From the NCBI GenBank assembly GCA_964490395.1, contig CAZBAS010000001.1:147815-211814 (forward strand): a DNA stretch of 64,000 nucleotides, written 5' to 3'. The DNA is from an uncultured Candidatus Saccharibacteria bacterium. GTDB lineage: Bacteria > Patescibacteriota > Doudnabacteria > UBA920. Shown piece after piece: positions 7,096-37,866 of the stretch (the first letter of the stretch is position 1; every line of letters starts with the position of its first letter). The notes under the pieces were generated by a model. That model saw only the letters and a list, made by a program, of their open reading frames with translations. It ran no database searches and was not told where the DNA came from. Position numbers and translations under genes: made by a program.

Positions 7096-7170
7096 GGCGC
7101 TATCATCTAATGGTTAGGATATGTGGTTTTCATCCACAAAATCCGGGTTCGATTCCCGGTAGCGCTACCA
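7096..7170 (+). tRNA. tRNA-Glu (anticodon UUC), CCA encoded
   Basis: Hand-folded cloverleaf. Acceptor GGCGCTA/TAGCGCT with G1-U72, D-stem ATCT/GGAT, anticodon stem TGTGG/CCACA with loop TTTTCAT (34-36 = TTC), T-arm CCGGG-TTCGATT-CCCGG, discriminator A, then CCA. Confidence 0.8.
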
Positions 7171-7197
7171 AGAAAAATATTTATTCTTGCACCATCC

Positions 7198-7542
7198 ATG
7201 AACATAGAAGAAAAAATACACATAGCGGAAATGGAAAAGTTTCTAGAGCGCTATGAGTTACAGCATTTTCATGTAGACGTATGGGAGAGAATCATTACCC
7301 TTGTTATAGCTGCGCTGGGCCTTATAGCAGCGCTGGCGTGGGACAAGGCCCTGCATCATGTTTTTGAAAAAATATCCGGTCATGCGGGAAGCATTCCAGA
7401 AGAGTTAACCTATGCTGTGACCATTACTGTGTTTGCAGCGCTGGTCTCTGTTCGGTTAGGTAGACTTGCCACTTCTCGGCAACAGAAATTACACCGGGCG
7501 CACGAGGTACAGAGCGCAGACCAAGACAGTGCCAGTAAGTAA
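7198..7542 (+). CDS. hypothetical small membrane protein
   Basis: The track ORF at 7123 overlaps the tRNA. Start re-assigned to the ATG at 7198 (MNIEEKIH). One TM segment. Followed by a terminator. Confidence 0.4.
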   Translation: MNIEEKIHIAEMEKFLERYELQHFHVDVWERIITLVIAALGLIAALAWDKALHHVFEKISGHAGSIPEELTYAVTITVFAALVSVRLGRLATSRQQKLHRAHEVQSADQDSASK

Positions 7543-7575: not shown

Positions 7576-7606
7576 AAAAGCACCAAACATACCGTTTGGT
7601 GCTTTT
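7576..7606 (+). terminator. Rho-independent terminator
   Basis: AAAAGCACCAAAC-ATACC-GTTTGGTGCTTTT followed by GATTTT. Confidence 0.6.
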
Positions 7607-7821
7607 GATTTTATACAGTACGTAAGCCGTAGCATAACTATTGGTAGTGTGCACAGGCTCAAGGCGGGTTGTCATTGTACACCTTTTCCAGTAAAGATGC
7701 TGAGGTTTGGCGGCTAAAGTTTGGTTAACGTAAAATTGTTTTTGTTGTTTACAGAAAACAAAAAAGATGGTTTAATTAAAGTCTAGAAATTCACATTTAA
7801 AGAAATAAATAGAGTACACCT

Positions 7822-8403
7822 ATGAATATACGAAATATAGTTGTGGTGGCTACTGCTGTGTGTTTGCTGGCGGCGGGCTGCTCCAAGACTAAAACGGAAA
7901 CGCAAACACCTCCACCCGCTGCTACGGGGGATAGCGCTACTGCGTCAATAAACATAGCTAAAGAACTGGACCCAACCCAAAACTGGATTCGGTTTTACCC
8001 GAGCGAGACAGTAAAGCTTAATTTACTTTTCCCTCTTACTTGGTTTGGTGATGAAGACAACGACGACACTCACTTCATACTGCGCACCCGAAAAGGTGCA
8101 GATGGAAGCAGGGTAGATGACGTTATTATGGACTTTACGGTAACTTCGTTAACTGCCAAAACTCTTACCGATCAAGTTACAGCCGACATGAAAGGCTCTA
8201 AAGATATGAGCCCTGTTACCACGACCATGACGGATAGTGGTACAACTTATGCATTTGCTACCTATGTAAATACTTCGGGTAAGCCCACGCTCGGTGTAGC
8301 AGTACCTTACCAGAACAACCAGTATATACACCTCAAGGTTACCGGTAACATTGCTCACCCATATGTGGGCAGAATTATACAAAGCCTAACCATAACTAAG
8401 TAG
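7822..8403 (+). CDS. lipoprotein, function unknown
   Basis: Signal peptide with lipobox LLAAGC (MNIRNIVVVATAVCLLAAGCSK). Confidence 0.5.
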   Translation: MNIRNIVVVATAVCLLAAGCSKTKTETQTPPPAATGDSATASINIAKELDPTQNWIRFYPSETVKLNLLFPLTWFGDEDNDDTHFILRTRKGADGSRVDDVIMDFTVTSLTAKTLTDQVTADMKGSKDMSPVTTTMTDSGTTYAFATYVNTSGKPTLGVAVPYQNNQYIHLKVTGNIAHPYVGRIIQSLTITK

Positions 8404-8421
8404 GGTAAAGGATCCATAGCT

Positions 8422-10251
8422 ATGAAACAGAATACGGATATAGAAAAGCAGGAGAGGGGTCTGCGGCAGGCTCTAAGCTCCCGCATGCGGAAAAGCAAAG
8501 TCTTCATGGCCGCTGTGCTTATAAGCATGGTTGCTGGCTTGCTACCTATAATAGTAGATTCTCCAAAAGTGGCAGAGGCGGATATGATTTCAGTGCTTAA
8601 GGCCGCTTTCAATGGCTACAGTACAAGTCAGAACCCAGGAGTAGCGCCGCGTGCTACAAATACAAATACATCTGCTGATGCTACTGCAGCAGCCGCCGCT
8701 GCTGCGTACAAATTTGTTTGTCCAGACGGGCAAGTAGAAAGCGGTCGCGTTGAACGTGAAGGCGCCATTCGTTGTGTGCCGTGTCCAGTGGGAACTGTGC
8801 GCATGTATGTTGGTGGCGGTGAAGCGTGCCATCCGCCGGGATTTAAAGTTGACTACAGCAACATCCCCGCTGGCTACGAAGTTGGTATGAATGGTCAAAT
8901 TTGTCGCTCCGACGGCCAGTCATATGCAGGCTCTTTTAACCGCCGTTATAAAAGCACGCAGCCGAATTTTGGTGAATGCTGCAATGGTGGATTTCGCGAT
9001 ACCAAGCCAGTGGTGGCGGGTAGTAGTGTAGCCTTGTTTATTTGCGGGGGTAACAACCCTGCGCAAAAGCCCACCCCACCTCCTTCAGGTGGCACGGGTG
9101 GTACTGGCCAAGGCGGAAGTACAGGCGGTAGCGGAAGCGGTGGTTCTGCTGGCGGAAGCGCTGCCCCTCATACCTTTGTTTGTCCAGACGGGCAAGTAGA
9201 AAGCGGCCGCGTTGAACGTGAAGGCGCCATTCGTTGTGTGCCGTGTCCAACGGGTACTGTACGCATGTATGTTGGTGGTGGCGAGTCGTGCCACCCACCA
9301 GGGTACAAGGTAGATTACAGCAACTTACTACCTGGCTATGAAATAGGTGCTAACGGACAAGTGTGTAGGTCCGATGGCCAGTCGTATGCAGGCTCATTTA
9401 ACCGCCGCTATAGAAGCACACAGGCAAATATGGGAGAGTGCTGTAATGGTGGATATAGAGATAGCAAACCAATAGTGGCGGGTAGTAGTGTGGCCTTGTT
9501 TATTTGCGGTGTGCCTACTGCAGCCCAAGCAGCTGCGGCAGGGTCGGTAGTGCCGCCATCTGCAGGTACCCAGGCAACCCAAGTTTCAAGACTGAGTGGT
9601 TCGTTTGACGGTGCCTCGTGTACTCAATTCTCGGGGTGGGCAATAAATAGCGCAGACCCTTCCGGCACTGTTACTGTGAAATTTTATTCAGGCGGGTCGC
9701 TTCGTGCTGGTAACCTCATAGGTTCTGTAACTACTACAGTGCAGCGAGACGATGTGAACGCTGCCAAAGGAGTTACGGGCACTCACGGGTTTACCTTTAC
9801 TGTCCCAGCCGGCACATTTACCGCTGGACAGACTTATCGGGTAGACGCCTATGCTGTTGGGTCTACAGACCAATTACTATCTGCTAGTCCAAAGACCGTT
9901 ACCTGTACTGCAGGTACTGGCACTCCACCTCCACCCGTACCTGACGCAACATATAAAGGTGGGCCAGTAGACCCAAATGCTACCTTTGTTATTAGTACTC
10001 CTGTAGATGGGAGTGTACTCTCTGGCTCAAGTTTTGACGCCACGTACTACTCCACAGCAGACTTGCTCTCTGGCGACTATATTATTTTCCAGTTGGACAA
10101 TCAAACGCCCGTAGGCGTAGCTGCCCCGGGGAGTGTATACCGATTCTCCAATGTCGCACCAGGTACCCATACGCTTCGAGGATATATTTCTCATGCAGAT
10201 GGAACGAAAGTTCCTGGTACGAGCACAAGTCGCACATTTACTACGCAGTAA
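8422..10251 (+). CDS. membrane-anchored Cys-rich surface protein with an internal tandem domain duplication
   Basis: 609 aa. N-terminal TM anchor. Two copies of a roughly 112-aa, 8-Cys domain (FVCPDGQVESGRVEREGAIRCVPCP...ECCNGG...ALFICG) separated by a Gly/Ser/Thr linker. C-terminal Thr/Gly-rich beta-type region. Confidence 0.6.
   Translation: MKQNTDIEKQERGLRQALSSRMRKSKVFMAAVLISMVAGLLPIIVDSPKVAEADMISVLKAAFNGYSTSQNPGVAPRATNTNTSADATAAAAAAAYKFVCPDGQVESGRVEREGAIRCVPCPVGTVRMYVGGGEACHPPGFKVDYSNIPAGYEVGMNGQICRSDGQSYAGSFNRRYKSTQPNFGECCNGGFRDTKPVVAGSSVALFICGGNNPAQKPTPPPSGGTGGTGQGGSTGGSGSGGSAGGSAAPHTFVCPDGQVESGRVEREGAIRCVPCPTGTVRMYVGGGESCHPPGYKVDYSNLLPGYEIGANGQVCRSDGQSYAGSFNRRYRSTQANMGECCNGGYRDSKPIVAGSSVALFICGVPTAAQAAAAGSVVPPSAGTQATQVSRLSGSFDGASCTQFSGWAINSADPSGTVTVKFYSGGSLRAGNLIGSVTTTVQRDDVNAAKGVTGTHGFTFTVPAGTFTAGQTYRVDAYAVGSTDQLLSASPKTVTCTAGTGTPPPPVPDATYKGGPVDPNATFVISTPVDGSVLSGSSFDATYYSTADLLSGDYIIFQLDNQTPVGVAAPGSVYRFSNVAPGTHTLRGYISHADGTKVPGTSTSRTFTTQ
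8713..9509. repeat. in-frame tandem duplication (462-bp period) inside CDS 8422..10251
   Basis: Copies at 8713-9047 and 9175-9509. The first roughly 75 nt of each copy are nearly identical (tttgtttgtccagacgggcaagtagaaagcgg...). Confidence 0.8.
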
Positions 10252-10279: not shown

Positions 10280-10314
10280 AAGCCACTTCACGTATATACG
10301 TGAAGTGGCTTTTG
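10280..10314. terminator. bidirectional Rho-independent terminator
   Basis: AAGCCACTTCACG-TATATA-CGTGAAGTGGCTT, a 13-bp stem flanked by A/T, lying between convergent genes. Confidence 0.7.
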
Positions 10315-10346: not shown

Positions 10347-11075
10347 TTATGTATCTATACCTTGCTCTTCAAATTCTTTTATAACCTGCTTAACGCCAAA
10401 TATCCAATTGGGGCTACCGGGCTGCACATAGAGACCAATAAACTTTTCTGGGGGTACGTCTTTATAACGTTTTTCGAGAAGCGCATCAAAATCTTTTACC
10501 CATTCAGCGTAGCTATTGTATTTGCGTAGGTTCGGAGGCGTACCGCCAATGCCACTGCAGTTGTAGTAGTAGCAATGTTGTCCATACGTGCTTTCTACAA
10601 ATGATATAGCCACCATCATGCGCATATTTTTAGATTCGACAAATGCATCCAGGGTTGCATCTTCCTGGGCAAAGGGTGAGTGCTTGCTTTCTAAATAGGC
10701 TTTGAGTTTTGCTTTGCGGATTGTTTTTTGGTCCACTGGAACTTCCGCAACCTCTCTATTTTCTTTTACAAACCTGGTGAATACAGGAGAAGTAATATCT
10801 ATAACTTGTTGTGAAAATACGCGAATCCCTTCCTCAGTCGTTGCTTCGGCCGCAGCATACAGCTCGCTGTTGGCAATGGGCTCGGAGAGTCGTAGGACAA
10901 ACATAACACCACTGGCAAAAGACAATACAACCAAACAGAGCATGGCGAGCACAGCTCGTTCCGCAAACCATGCTATGGTAGTCGAGTACCCATAGGGTAT
11001 ACCCGTAGCTTCAATGAGTCTGGTAACAAGCTTGGTTCCTTTTTTTATTTTTCGTTTTGTTTTTGGATGAAGCAC
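10347..11075 (-). CDS. membrane-anchored GH73-like (glucosaminidase/FlgJ-like) peptidoglycan hydrolase-like protein
   Basis: N-terminal TM. MVAISFVESTYGQ...YYNCSGIG...EWVKDFDALLEKRYK parallels GH73 LESGWG...NLFGIK...FxDYxxLL. Paralog of 38847..39668. GTG start at 11075 is tentative. Confidence 0.45.
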   Translation of the reverse strand: MLHPKTKRKIKKGTKLVTRLIEATGIPYGYSTTIAWFAERAVLAMLCLVVLSFASGVMFVLRLSEPIANSELYAAAEATTEEGIRVFSQQVIDITSPVFTRFVKENREVAEVPVDQKTIRKAKLKAYLESKHSPFAQEDATLDAFVESKNMRMMVAISFVESTYGQHCYYYNCSGIGGTPPNLRKYNSYAEWVKDFDALLEKRYKDVPPEKFIGLYVQPGSPNWIFGVKQVIKEFEEQGIDT

Positions 11076-11165: not shown

Positions 11166-12560
11166 GTGTTAAGCAGAAACAAAACGCGTTTGTCTACTGA
11201 ATCAGAACAAGTTAAAAAATATAGCATCGCCTTACTCATCCTACTCATTGCTTTTGGGTGCGTGTTTGGTATGGTGTACCTACTCATGCAGCGCCGTATG
11301 CATGCTCCGAGCTTTTCTGCGAGTGAGCAAGTAAAACGCATATATACAGTAACGTATACCGACAGCGGGTACAGCCCGAGTTCGTTAGAAGTACCGCTTG
11401 GGGCAACAGTAGTATTCCAAAACGATTCTACCATGCCCATGTGGACGGCATCTGATCCCCACCCGACTCACACCGATTATGCAGAGTTCGACTCCCACGC
11501 AAATACTCTACCTGGTGAATCGTACTCTTTTATCTTTGCCAAGAGCGGTACATTTGGCTACCACAACCACGCACGATCAATTCATAGAGGTATCGTACGA
11601 GTGCTCAGCAAGTCGCAGCTACCAAGCATAGACAAGACCGTAGAGGGGAAGCGCGCAGTGCGGGATGGATATATGAGCCAGTTTGTACCGGGCGATCCAA
11701 GTTCTATTTACGCTGTTATGGACGCTATAGAGGCGAACAGTGCTTTAGCGCGGGATTGTCATGACATGGCGCACGATCTTGGTCATCGTGCCTATGAGCT
11801 GTATGGTTTTTCCGGTGCCATGACGTTTGGTGATCCAAATAGACTGAGCAATACATCCACGGACGACATTTGCGCAGGCGGTTACATGCACGGCATTCTG
11901 GAAGAGCTGTTCCTGCACCAGCCAGAGCTTAAGGATGCGCCTGGGAGTGTGTGCGCGGGTGTGCCCTACATAAACCGCGGCAGCTGTTTTCATGGGGTAG
12001 GTCATGGCCTTATGTTTGCAAACAAGCGTGATGTCCCAGCATCGCTTGCAACCTGTAAGGGTCTTGCACATAGGGAAGATGCGCACCGCTGCTACGAAGG
12101 GGTGTGGATGGAAATGTTCTGGGGAAATGTAGAGCATGCAGGTAGTAACTCACTTGGGTGGACTCTAGAAGACCCGCTTGCTCCTTGTAAGCATGCAGGC
12201 CTAGAAGAAAAACCCGCGTGCTTCCTCTATGCCCACCTCGGGTACCTGCGGACACACAAGGCAGACTACGCAGGAATGGTAGCGCTATGCACTACAAACA
12301 ACCTTGAGAAAAAAGACGAGCAATTTTGCCTGAAAGGTGTTGGTATAACCATGATGAAGCACTTTAGTAGTCATCGCCTAGAAAATACTGAGTCTCTGGT
12401 GGCTGGTCTAGACCATGACAGTAAATACGCGTACTATCAAGGAGTAATTGGCTACTCCAGACTCTCTGCGGTAAGCGAACCAGACCTCCATACTTTTTGT
12501 ACTTGGCTCAAAACCGACCGCGTCATATGCGAAGACGTCCTGCGAAATGGTACGGATTAA
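11166..12560 (+). CDS. membrane-anchored protein with a His-rich beta-sandwich (cupredoxin-like) domain and a 6x Cys/His repeat domain
   Basis: 464 aa. TM near the N-terminus. TVVFQNDSTMPMWTASDPHPTH...GTFGYHNHARSIHRGIV, then six roughly 40-aa-spaced motifs C-x2-G-x2-H/M-G (CAGGYMHG, CFHGVGHG, CYEGVWME, CFLYAHLG, CLKGVGIT and others). GTG start. Confidence 0.45.
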   Translation: MLSRNKTRLSTESEQVKKYSIALLILLIAFGCVFGMVYLLMQRRMHAPSFSASEQVKRIYTVTYTDSGYSPSSLEVPLGATVVFQNDSTMPMWTASDPHPTHTDYAEFDSHANTLPGESYSFIFAKSGTFGYHNHARSIHRGIVRVLSKSQLPSIDKTVEGKRAVRDGYMSQFVPGDPSSIYAVMDAIEANSALARDCHDMAHDLGHRAYELYGFSGAMTFGDPNRLSNTSTDDICAGGYMHGILEELFLHQPELKDAPGSVCAGVPYINRGSCFHGVGHGLMFANKRDVPASLATCKGLAHREDAHRCYEGVWMEMFWGNVEHAGSNSLGWTLEDPLAPCKHAGLEEKPACFLYAHLGYLRTHKADYAGMVALCTTNNLEKKDEQFCLKGVGITMMKHFSSHRLENTESLVAGLDHDSKYAYYQGVIGYSRLSAVSEPDLHTFCTWLKTDRVICEDVLRNGTD

Positions 12561-36491: not shown

Positions 36492-37325
36492 TTACTTTTG
36501 TCGTTTTTGTAAGAAGAAATTCTTCTGGTCTTGCTTATTGATCTGCTCACTGTTCGCGTCTTCCGAGCTTGCGCCCTCTTGCTTTGTGTTCTTGTTGTCT
36601 TGCTTCTGTGTAGGATCAAAGTTGCTCCGGCGGTCTTCTCGCCAGCTTCTTACATTTACTTTGTTTTTGAGCTTGGTAATAGTAGCGTCCAGGTCTTCTG
36701 CTTCACCTCGTTTGCCTTCGTGGTTAAGGTTTTTTTTGGTCTGCTCTAGGGTGCCTATGGCTTTCAGTACTTCCCGCCTGGCTCGCACTTCTGCTTCGGA
36801 GTGGGCAGTAGGTTTTTCTTCGTCGTCTGGCGCTATAGTTGTTCGAACAGTGGTGGTAGCTGCTTCGGGTGCCGTTAACGTAGCTGCTGTAGGCGCGGCG
36901 ATAGTTTTCTTTGGTGTCTGTTTAGCTTCTGGTGCTTTTGTTTCAAGGGTGTCTAGCTCACGAATACGTTCCTCTGTAAATTGCACTTGTAGTTTTGCTT
37001 TTGACTCAGGGGTCGAAGCAAAGGAGAGGCGAGCGCCTTCTACTGCCCGTTTAACCGAGTAGAGTGTGTCGCCGGGCATTGAACTACCAGAGGCGTAGGC
37101 AGTCCCTGAAAGGACAGCGAGAATTAACACCGCAAACGAGGAAACACGGACCAGCGTAAGAGACCATGCTCTGCGTGGGCTTGTGTGCTGGGCAGCTTGG
37201 TCAGGTCCTGCTGCAATACGAGCCAGTACCCGCTGCTTAATCTGTTCTTTTGCAGAAATAGACAGGCTAGGGGTTCCGCGTTCGGAATACTTTTTATAGA
37301 GATGGATTAACTTATCTTGTTTCAT
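36492..37325 (-). CDS. putative anti-sigma factor (single TM, Lys/Glu-rich extracytoplasmic tail)
   Basis: Overlaps the ECF sigma gene by 14 nt. Cytoplasmic N-terminus, TM (FAVLILAVLSGTAYA), and a low-complexity charged C-terminus. Confidence 0.4.
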   Translation of the reverse strand: MKQDKLIHLYKKYSERGTPSLSISAKEQIKQRVLARIAAGPDQAAQHTSPRRAWSLTLVRVSSFAVLILAVLSGTAYASGSSMPGDTLYSVKRAVEGARLSFASTPESKAKLQVQFTEERIRELDTLETKAPEAKQTPKKTIAAPTAATLTAPEAATTTVRTTIAPDDEEKPTAHSEAEVRARREVLKAIGTLEQTKKNLNHEGKRGEAEDLDATITKLKNKVNVRSWREDRRSNFDPTQKQDNKNTKQEGASSEDANSEQINKQDQKNFFLQKRQK

Positions 37326-37866
37326 GGTGCTTGAATATGCGTTCTAGTTTTTTCATGGCGCGGTGCTGGAGTACTCGGACCGATACACTATTTTTCTTGA
37401 GCGCTTTCGCTGTTTCTTCTATAGAGAGTTCTTGAATAAATCTTAACTCGAGTACTTGTTTATAGTTTATAGGAAGTTGGCTTAATGCTTTATGCAGGAG
37501 TACGGCATCCAGGGAGCTATTTACTAAATCGCTCGTATCATTGTCTGCGGCGGTATCAAAGGTGGGGTCTAGGGAAACGGTTTGCGGTCTGCGATATACC
37601 TTACGAAAATGATCATTGACCGTATTTGAAGCGACGGTGTAGAGCCAAGCAGAAAAATTTAAATCTTTCAATTCTAACTTTTTACAACCGTGCCATGCCT
37701 TTACAAAAACCTCTTGAAGCAGGTCCTCTGCATGCTCTGGGTCCGATGTTTTAAAAGATATAAATTTATATATTCTATCCGCGAATTCATCGTATAAGCT
37801 TGCAAACGCCTGTTCGCTTCCTTGCTGGACCTCGGCAACTAATTTTTCAATGTCAGCTTTTTCCAT
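37312..37866 (-). CDS. ECF (sigma-70 family) RNA polymerase sigma factor
   Basis: Region 2 (FASLYDEFADRIYKFISFKTSDPEHAEDLLQEVFVKAW) and region 4 HTH (LSIEETAKALKKNSVSVRVLQHRAMKKL). Confidence 0.8.
   Translation of the reverse strand: MEKADIEKLVAEVQQGSEQAFASLYDEFADRIYKFISFKTSDPEHAEDLLQEVFVKAWHGCKKLELKDLNFSAWLYTVASNTVNDHFRKVYRRPQTVSLDPTFDTAADNDTSDLVNSSLDAVLLHKALSQLPINYKQVLELRFIQELSIEETAKALKKNSVSVRVLQHRAMKKLERIFKHHETR

Follow-up and report, generated by a model that had tools for sequence, protein, structure and literature searches.

A rare, predicted two-gene cassette of Patescibacteria encoding a lipoprotein and a cysteine-module repeat protein

How bacteria of the candidate phyla radiation (CPR, or Patescibacteria) recognise and hold their hosts is largely unexplained beyond type IV pili, and most of the proteins they export are unannotated. 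The repeat-containing adhesins of Gram-positive bacteria are made up of many short, cysteine-free repeats and carry an LPXTG anchor. To grow as an epibiont, a cultured Saccharibacterium requires glycan-binding and FN3 proteins that it secretes (Wang et al., Cell 2023, PMC10633639). The gene described here is located in a 64,000-nucleotide stretch of contig CAZBAS010000001.1 from an uncultured Candidatus Saccharibacteria bacterium, called the window in its full length, and encodes a 609-residue protein with 18 cysteines, the Cys-module protein (positions 8422–10251; forward strand, as are all features below unless stated otherwise). As a kind, an exported, repeat-containing surface protein with immunoglobulin (Ig)-like domains is familiar. 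New are its orphan cysteine modules, A and B, the obligate pairing with a lipoprotein and a well-documented concerted evolution of the repeat, with variants in unit number.

From the amino-terminus, the exported protein consists of a predicted signal peptide, a 19-residue motif, two A+B units on either side of a linker, and two Ig-like beta-sandwiches. Unit 1 is made up of residues 98–209 (8713–9048) and unit 2 of residues 252–363 (9175–9510). What an initial annotation of this gene had described as an 8-Cys domain is composed of two modules of four cysteines each, a division that follows from relatives with an A-B-B architecture. Module A (A1, Cys100–Cys136, nt 8719–8829; A2, Cys254–Cys290, nt 9181–9291) has the pattern C-P-x-G-Q-V...C-x-P-C-P-x-G-T...C with spacing C-x17-C-x2-C-x14-C. 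Module B (B1, residues 158–208, nt 8893–9045; B2, residues 312–362, nt 9355–9507) has the pattern C-[RL]-x-D-G-Q-S-Y-A-G...C-C-N-G-G...G-S-S-V-x-L-F-I-C-G with spacing C-x24-CC-x20-C. The eight cysteines of unit 1 are located at positions 100, 118, 121, 136, 161, 186, 187 and 208, those of unit 2 at the same positions plus 154. Between the units lies a Gly/Ser/Thr/Pro linker (residues 210–251, 9049–9174), which is orthologous between genomes and has 34 of its 42 residues identical to those of the relative P0001. The earlier description of this region, with two in-frame 8-Cys units at a 462-bp period, about 75 nearly identical nucleotides, a Gly/Ser/Thr linker and carboxy-terminal domains of beta type, agrees with what was found in the sequence and, for the latter domains, in the strands of AlphaFold2 (AF2) models.

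The direct repeat (8697–8996 and 9159–9458) is 300 nt long, and its copies start exactly 462 nt apart and are 81% identical in nucleotides; compared over their full 112 residues, the two units share 97 of 112 amino acids and 279 of 336 nucleotides. Tandem Repeats Finder does not report the 462-nt repeat, because the linker separates the units. Mismatches between the units fall at codon positions 1, 2 and 3 in a ratio of 12/7/38, and the codon differences comprise 29 synonymous and 15 non-synonymous changes. The ratio of non-synonymous to synonymous divergence (dN/dS) is 0.125 between the two copies and 0.04–0.07 between orthologous units. The former value and the third-position bias of the mismatches therefore indicate that both copies are under purifying selection. 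An assembly artefact was ruled out as the origin of the repeat: the copies differ by 17%, and repeated units occur in all complete homologues.

The cysteines of the units are invariant across the family alignment. Complete proteins have even cysteine counts, from 16 to 28, and the sole exception has one cysteine in its pre-sequence. The 18 cysteines of the window protein would form nine intradomain disulfides, probably two in each A and each B module and one joining Cys400 to Cys495 in the carboxy-terminal domain D3. A metal-binding site in the unit was considered and rejected; the histidine beside the fourth cysteine is not conserved.

Directly upstream, the partner lipoprotein gene (7822–8403) encodes 193 residues, with a lipobox (LLAAG-C20-SK), a Thr/Pro-rich tether and an orphan domain of about 140 residues. 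The two genes are separated by an 18-nt intercistronic spacer (8404–8421) with an AAGGA Shine-Dalgarno sequence. A sigma-70-like promoter candidate (TTGGCG-18-TAAAAT, 7707–7736, a consensus match only) and an intrinsic-terminator-like hairpin (10280–10311, a 14-bp stem followed by TTTTGATTGT), which closes the cassette, bracket the gene pair. In each of the 13 loci, the Cys-module gene is immediately preceded by a lipoprotein homologue, with a spacer of 15–30 nt; 11 of these spacers contain a Shine-Dalgarno-like (A)AGGA. Even the lipoprotein of the most divergent subfamily is a homologue, with an hhalign probability of 99.6% (E = 1.4e-24). The lipobox, [LMV]-A-[AV]-G-C-S-K, is present in all 21 lipoprotein clusters, and the window sequence LLAAG-C20 agrees with the pattern [LVI]-[ASTVI]-[GAS]-C, lipidation itself being predicted. 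The signal peptide of the lipoprotein has weak LPAM_1 and YfmC matches; the lipoprotein has no significant match in Pfam, NCBIfam, PHROGs or PDB and is thus an orphan as well. The two genes thus make up a predicted bicistronic cassette with obligate pairing, a stronger link than that proposed initially, when the lipoprotein was noted as a neighbour.

The family is very small. A search of 5.8 billion proteins yielded only six relatives, and an exhaustive HMMER scan, which covered 1.84 billion cluster representatives, brought in two fragments and one further full-length protein with Cys units (P0022). Searching outward from the partner lipoprotein gene brought the family to 13 distinct loci, about 13 in all public data, and the Cys unit is carried by 4 of 185,579 species genomes. 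All relatives for which the depositor gives an organism name are metagenome-assembled genomes (MAGs) of Patescibacteria, labelled Candidatus Doudnabacteria or Candidatus Saccharibacteria. Neither the unit alignment nor that of the lipoprotein matched anything in metagenome scans, and tblastn within the window revealed no further copies of any domain of the Cys-module protein.

Three layouts other than that of the window protein are found among the relatives. An X-A-B-B layout, in which X is an extra two-Cys hairpin, occurs in L003, L012, P0004 and L015, and the fragment P0006 is consistent with it; L004, L008 and L017 have (X-A-B)x2; and L010 has (A-B)x3, while the fragment L013 shows only one B-like module. 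Module B is best conserved, with 73–77% amino acid identity to distant homologues, versus about 50% for the carboxy-terminal Ig-like domains. Conservation is 48–52% for the Cys-module protein, versus 54–61% for the lipoprotein. A divergent subfamily (P0022 at L010:5830-7815 and a fragment at L013:5024-5530) does not contain the DM.SVLK..FNGY.TSQNP motif; instead of this amino-terminal motif, a small C-x-G-S-x-T-A-C loop directly follows the signal peptide. Its carboxy-terminal domains are unrelated to those of the window protein. The A and B modules and the lipoprotein are the only components kept across both subfamilies.

By sequence, the A/B unit belongs to no described family, as the initial annotation had suspected from its cysteine pattern. 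Neither the full protein nor any of 13 isolated units has a significant match in Pfam, NCBIfam or PHROGs. When PDB was searched by sequence with profiles built from the whole protein, from the unit and from the lipoprotein, the only match was a spurious one to L9. Literature searches for the motifs, and for cysteine-rich proteins and lipoproteins of CPR bacteria, found no account of the family. Faint sub-threshold Pfam matches are to Ephrin_rec_like and NCD3G (13 bits versus cut-offs of 23–39). The former (PF07699) covers 13 residues only of the full protein at 13.3 bits and E = 0.071, below its gathering cut-off of 23.1, and does not recur in scans of each of the 13 repeat units alone.

The amino-terminal region (residues 1–53, 8422–8580) contains a basic n-region of 26 residues and a hydrophobic segment of 19 residues, followed by SPKVAEA↓D. 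It is probably a cleavable Sec signal peptide, cut at AEA↓D between Ala53 and Asp54. The conserved motif DMISVLKAAFNGYSTSQNP (residues 54–72, 8581–8637), directly after SPKVAEA, would then form the mature amino-terminus. A P(-6)/A-or-V(-3)/A(-1) pattern after the hydrophobic segment, with the 19-residue motif following, is present in 11 of 13 relatives. The region of DMISVLKAAFNGYSTSQNP has 22 of 36 residues identical to distant homologues, versus 3–5 of 19 for the hydrophobic segment; cleavage is suggested because the site is kept even though the segment is poorly conserved. In the remaining two relatives, both of the divergent subfamily, the signal peptide is short and of the ordinary kind (VYA↓ED and VSA↓TH). 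No sortase (LPXTG) or other anchor was found in the Cys-module protein: LP.[TSA]G is absent from the last 60 residues of every member, the window protein ends in ...SRTFTTQ, and the Pfam scan contains no SLH, LysM or other wall-binding domain.

The membrane anchor assigned initially is thus doubtful. An uncleaved signal anchor, which would make the Cys-module protein a type II membrane protein with the lipoprotein as an accessory such as a foldase, chaperone or co-receptor, is rather unlikely. The basic 26-residue n-region and the 19-residue hydrophobic segment are long for a signal peptide, and AF2 predicts a single long helix for residues 3–39, with low confidence. Conservation of the -6/-3/-1 pattern after so variable a segment speaks against such an anchor, as does the presence of the lipoprotein partner in the two members with short signal peptides. 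It would be a variant of the interpretation given next rather than a contradiction of it.

We interpret the Cys-module protein as a binding protein, rich in disulfides and with repeats shaped by gene conversion, that is secreted and then kept on the cell surface by the partner lipoprotein, and give this interpretation as a whole a probability of about 0.5. Its descriptive part is held with considerable confidence; the tethering and binding mechanism is tentative. The small lipoprotein would be made from one cassette together with the Sec-exported, multi-domain Cys-rich protein, whose signal peptide would be cut at the site given above to leave the 19-residue motif at the mature amino-terminus. 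The lipid-anchored lipoprotein would bind the A and B modules and so retain the secreted protein on the cell surface. A tether of this kind is suggested because the Cys-module protein has no anchor of its own and because only the lipoprotein and the A/B modules are kept across the subfamilies. The rigid Cys modules and the Ig-like domains would present a non-enzymatic binding function outward, as an adhesin or a receptor for a host-cell or environmental ligand; no enzymatic domain appears in the Pfam, NCBIfam or PHROGs scans. Host attachment, one of the two roles that the initial annotation had suggested for the locus, is a tentative assignment.

Several points weigh against this interpretation. 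Rather than a tether, the lipoprotein could be a chaperone or an immunity protein, or it could act independently of the Cys-module protein. AF2 has low confidence for the A/B modules, with a predicted local distance difference test (pLDDT) score below 50 in the full-length model from a 7-sequence alignment and of 53.5 for the isolated unit. The cleavage site was judged by eye, and the n- and h-regions are, at 26 and 19 residues, long. Oxidoreductases resembling MdbA are commonly encoded with VKOR by CPR bacteria (bioRxiv 10.1101/335083), while a search of the open reading frames (ORFs) of the 64-kb window for thioredoxin-type CxxC motifs, a motif check only, found no disulfide oxidoreductase. 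Finally, some of the gene-conversion evidence depends on MAGs assembled from short reads, in which repeats may be threaded wrongly, although the contrast in synonymous divergence within the window, described below, is independent of those assemblies.

Taken further, the lipoprotein and the A/B protein might be an undescribed two-component surface receptor of a small Patescibacteria clade, that of the Doudnabacteria and Saccharibacteria MAGs. The lipoprotein would dock a secreted stalk of disulfide-ladder modules, with A distantly similar to the tumour necrosis factor receptor (TNFR) and B a new fold. The A/B modules or the distal Ig-like domains would recognise the host cell, and gene conversion and unit number (1.5, 2 or 3) would vary or tune the receptor between strains. 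In this extended form, the proposal is speculative and we consider it unlikely to hold in full.

That the protein is a structural component of the envelope, such as an S-layer or cell-wall scaffold with no specific ligand, is improbable. Lineage-restricted, beta-rich exported proteins with Ig-like domains and a composition rich in Gly, Ser, Thr and Ala are typical of surface layers, and the narrow distribution fits fast-evolving envelope proteins. S-layer proteins, on the other hand, are classically poor in cysteine, while the Cys-module protein has 18 invariant cysteines. It also has none of the wall-binding domains sought in the Pfam scan, and at 4 species genomes in 185,579 it is rare even among related CPR genomes.

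A toxin-immunity or bacteriocin-like pair, in which the Cys-rich protein would be an antagonistic effector and the lipoprotein its immunity protein, is more improbable still. For some antimicrobials that bacteria secrete, the immunity factor is a lipoprotein, and both the strict linkage of the two genes and the rapid variation of the repeat region between near-identical strains would suit such a pair. However, Pfam, NCBIfam and PHROGs give no toxin, peptidase, nuclease or pore-forming domain, and the two Ig-like domains fit a surface protein better. The purifying selection on the A+B units noted above, together with a lipoprotein as conserved as the Cys-module protein or more so, is atypical of arms-race pairs. 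The surroundings are housekeeping genes, and no mobile-element or secretion-system genes are located near the cassette.

Regarding the origin of the repeat, the A+B units are best explained by an old tandem duplication, with the copies kept alike by recurrent intragenic gene conversion. Within the window, the synonymous divergence (dS) between the copies is 0.73 over the unit, but 0.26 in module A versus 1.26 in the rest of the unit; so sharp a change of identity along the unit points to conversion tracts and not to a single duplication. What appears to be the most recent conversion tract covers the unit starts (8713–8787, with 9175–9249 as partner), where 74 of 75 nucleotides are identical and the longest exact run is 42 nt. 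In aligned unit columns 1–81 (72 bases here, starting 6 nt into the tract), there are 3 mismatches between paralogs versus 12–17 between orthologues, and a permutation test shows that so long a run without third-position differences would rarely arise by chance (p = 0.005). Among the three closest genomes, dS between unit 1 and unit 2 of the same gene is 0.41–0.82, and that between orthologous units is 1.4 to saturated. When the window, L001 and L005 are compared, 24 nucleotide sites are genome-specific, with unit 1 equal to unit 2 within a genome, and 2 are position-specific. Both of the latter are located near the 3' end of the unit (F/Y and T/S) and are common to all three close genomes. 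In L005, the two units have 0 mismatches in columns 1–81, 3 in the next 114 and 36 in the last 144, which gives a near-identical tract of about 190 nt.

Two near-isogenic Doudnabacteria genes (L003:1801-3489 and L012:5550-7238) differ at 86 of 1689 nucleotides. Of these differences, 84 are located in the region formed by B1, linker and B2 (nt 545–1080) and none in the first 540 nt. In L003, B1 has moved towards its own B2, with an identity of 0.81 versus 0.63 in L012. Two explanations fit this pattern: a hot spot of recombination between strains, or mis-assembly of the repeat in one of the MAGs. Across the relatives, the number of units is 1.5, 2 or 3, the variation in copy number for which the initial annotation had suggested looking, and the same conversion process appears to change both unit number and sequence between lineages. 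The duplication is considered old because the two-unit layout is common to genomes with saturated orthologous dS; of the two origins first offered, recent duplication or gene conversion, the second is retained and the first is not, as the duplication predates the split of those genomes. A second copy of recent origin in this lineage is very improbable: copies that are 83% identical in nucleotides, with the 75-nt near-identical stretch, and that in the window and L001 are nearer to each other than to their orthologues might suggest it, but the same two units, orthologous linker and flanks are present in L001, L005, L004, L008 and L017, whose orthologous dS to the window is saturated, the differences at the 3' end of the unit are shared by position in all three close genomes, the B modules of L001 and L005 group by position (0.82/0.80) and not by genome (0.79/0.75), and the sharp change of identity along the unit fits conversion tracts instead.

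Short-read contigs from the lineage of the window break at the repeat. L014, a 1601-bp Logan contig, ends at residue 107, at the start of unit 1, and P0176, a 273-residue fragment from a 932-bp contig of the window's own lineage, begins inside B2. P0176 represents the cluster of the window protein, which may explain the absence of the latter from the matches of the word-indexed search.

The carboxy-terminal half of the protein contains two beta-sandwiches. Domain D3 (residues 390–497, 9589–9912) is all-beta in the AF2 model (pLDDT 62–75) and has two invariant cysteines, Cys400 and Cys495. It carries the motif GWA..D...V.FY..G...R.D.N...G.HGF in the window protein; across the wider family, the motif reads GWA.D...V.VY.DG...R.D.N...G.HGF, often between two cysteines. 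Domain D4 (residues 518–609, 9973–10248) is predicted with higher pLDDT values (70–90) and may be related to the bacterial Ig domain Big_7. A Foldseek search with the model of D3 and D4 gives tandem Ig/FN3-like matches. With the family profile, 3,033 cluster representatives match at E ≤ 1e-3; among the best 150 of these, almost every alignment falls on D3. This domain is homologous to the "GWA" beta-sandwich repeat of giant surface proteins, in which it is repeated up to 15 times, in some cases together with type IX secretion system (T9SS) sorting, CBM60 or laminin-G domains. The members of the D3 family considered were P0007, P0008, P0013, P0017, P0023, P0049 and P0143, and in those scanned D3 has no Pfam model and no PDB sequence match. 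For D4, the Pfam scan of the window protein gives no direct Big_7 (PF17957) match at E ≤ 1, and the link is transitive. The family profile matches residues 387–484 of P0099 (whole-protein E = 2e-31), and the Big_7 domain assigned by Pfam in P0099 spans residues 394–460, so that D4 aligns to P0099 repeats that Pfam calls Big_7; the repeats of P0103 are alike by eye. The two domains indicate an extracellular location, not a function.

The wider neighbourhood of the cassette is made up of housekeeping genes. Neighbours other than the lipoprotein gene vary with lineage; among them are genes for ThyX, TrmB, a HAD hydrolase, a transporter and a YgjP-like protein, and in other loci UvrD/KsgA or an extracytoplasmic function (ECF) sigma factor with a DUF5667 protein. 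The cassette of the divergent subfamily follows the uvrD and ksgA genes. In Doudnabacteria loci, the cassette is followed by an opposite-strand DUF5667 protein and an ECF-type sigma-70 factor (L003:3599-4953 and L012:7348-8703). A pair of ORFs of the same size (277 and 184 residues) is located in the window at 36492–37866 on the reverse strand, 26 kb from the cassette, its likeness to the DUF5667/sigma-70 pair being one of size. Upstream of the cassette, a tRNA-Glu(UUC) gene (7096–7170) overlaps the 5' end of the DUF5654 ORF (7123–7542), the true start of which is, because of this overlap, probably a downstream ATG (MNIEEK...). A hairpin with a T-run at about 7580–7610 closes the DUF5654 gene.

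Downstream, the reverse-strand gene at 10347–11075 encodes 242 residues and is kept only in the closest relatives. Its description as PG-hydrolase-like, for peptidoglycan hydrolase, depends on a sub-threshold Glucosaminidase match (PF01832, 14.8 bits versus 30.2, E = 0.045), and the product matches nothing in NCBIfam, PHROGs or PDB. The second gene after the cassette (11166–12560), at the same place in the close relatives L001 and L005, encodes a predicted membrane-anchored protein of 464 residues. Its amino-terminal domain is cupredoxin/plastocyanin-like at sub-threshold scores (E = 5.7e-4 in Pfam and 0.006 in NCBIfam), and its carboxy-terminal region is rich in Cys and His (CHDMAHDLGH..., C..GVGHG). 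In L005 (3431–6016) and L008 (7211–9814), but not in the window, the first or second gene after the cassette encodes a large exported protein of 861–867 residues; that of L005 contains C-type lectin, Big_5, purple-acid-phosphatase-N and a faint PG_binding_1 domain, and that of L008 is alike by eye.

An origin of the gene from foreign DNA was also considered and rejected, since its GC content at third codon positions (0.41) is like that of the neighbouring genes; its higher total GC content is due to its content of Gly, Ala and Pro. PHROGs has no match for the window proteins, tblastn against 50,697 phage records gave none, and neither did a scan of viral contigs.

The cassette is a clean, testable unit, with two genes, invariant motifs and natural variants of 1.5, 2 and 3 units. 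If it were a host-contact device, it would be a new module class in bacterial surface biology and a marker for one CPR lineage. Even with a mundane function, it is a compact case of concerted evolution inside a single bacterial gene, and the gene shows why repeat genes of this type fragment in short-read assemblies. Its rarity limits its general importance.

When the predicted structure of the unit is compared with known folds, no match is significant. In the AF2 model of the isolated unit, obtained from a 13-row alignment, module A forms two beta-hairpins with pLDDT 56–79 and module B remains below 50. The top Foldseek matches of this model in PDB and a viral library are nearly all TNFR-type cysteine-rich domains (CRDs), those of CD40, OX40, GITR, HVEM, DcR3, UL144 and poxvirus TNFR decoys, plus the Cys-rich domain of the calcium-sensing receptor (CaSR), with E-values of 0.24–1.4 and probabilities of at most 0.63 for a query model with pLDDT 53.5. 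The likeness is limited to module A, which is predicted to form stacked, disulfide-pinned beta-hairpins as in TNFR CRDs; module B, with its DGQSYAG, CCNGG and GSSVALFICG motifs, resembles nothing. The faint Pfam matches to Ephrin_rec_like and NCD3G point in the same direction. Like the domains of those two families, TNFR CRDs occur in tandem outside the cell, where they serve for binding or as spacers and not as enzymes. Module A differs from them in having four cysteines, not six, and in the lack of any significant score: Pfam TNFR gives no match even at E ≤ 10, and the PROSITE pattern PS00652, which we take to be C-x(4,6)-[FYH]-x(5,10)-C-x(0,2)-C-x(2,3)-C-x(7,11)-C-x(4,6)-[DNEQSKP]-x(2)-C, for a unit of about 40 residues with 6 cysteines, is absent as a regular expression from all 13 family proteins. 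Furthermore, TNFR-type CRDs come from animals or viruses, while the Cys-module protein is bacterial. The resemblance of module A to TNFR CRDs is a lead, not a result.

With the repeat adhesins of Gram-positive bacteria, the Cys-module protein shares in-frame units homogenised by intragenic recombination, a unit number that varies between lineages and a concentration of near-identical-strain variation in the repeat region. It differs from them in having 1.5–3 long (about 112 residues), putatively disulfide-rich units with linkers and no sortase signal. The proteins that cultured Saccharibacteria need for epibiotic growth are from the same superphylum. They too are exported, combine several domains, among them Ig/FN3-like modules, lack an enzymatic domain and are believed to touch the surface of the host cell. 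This likeness is one of kind only, the Cys-module family being known here from sequence alone. Where the Saccharibacteria proteins carry recognised VCBS, dockerin and FN3 domains, the Cys-module protein combines orphan cysteine modules with an obligate lipoprotein partner.

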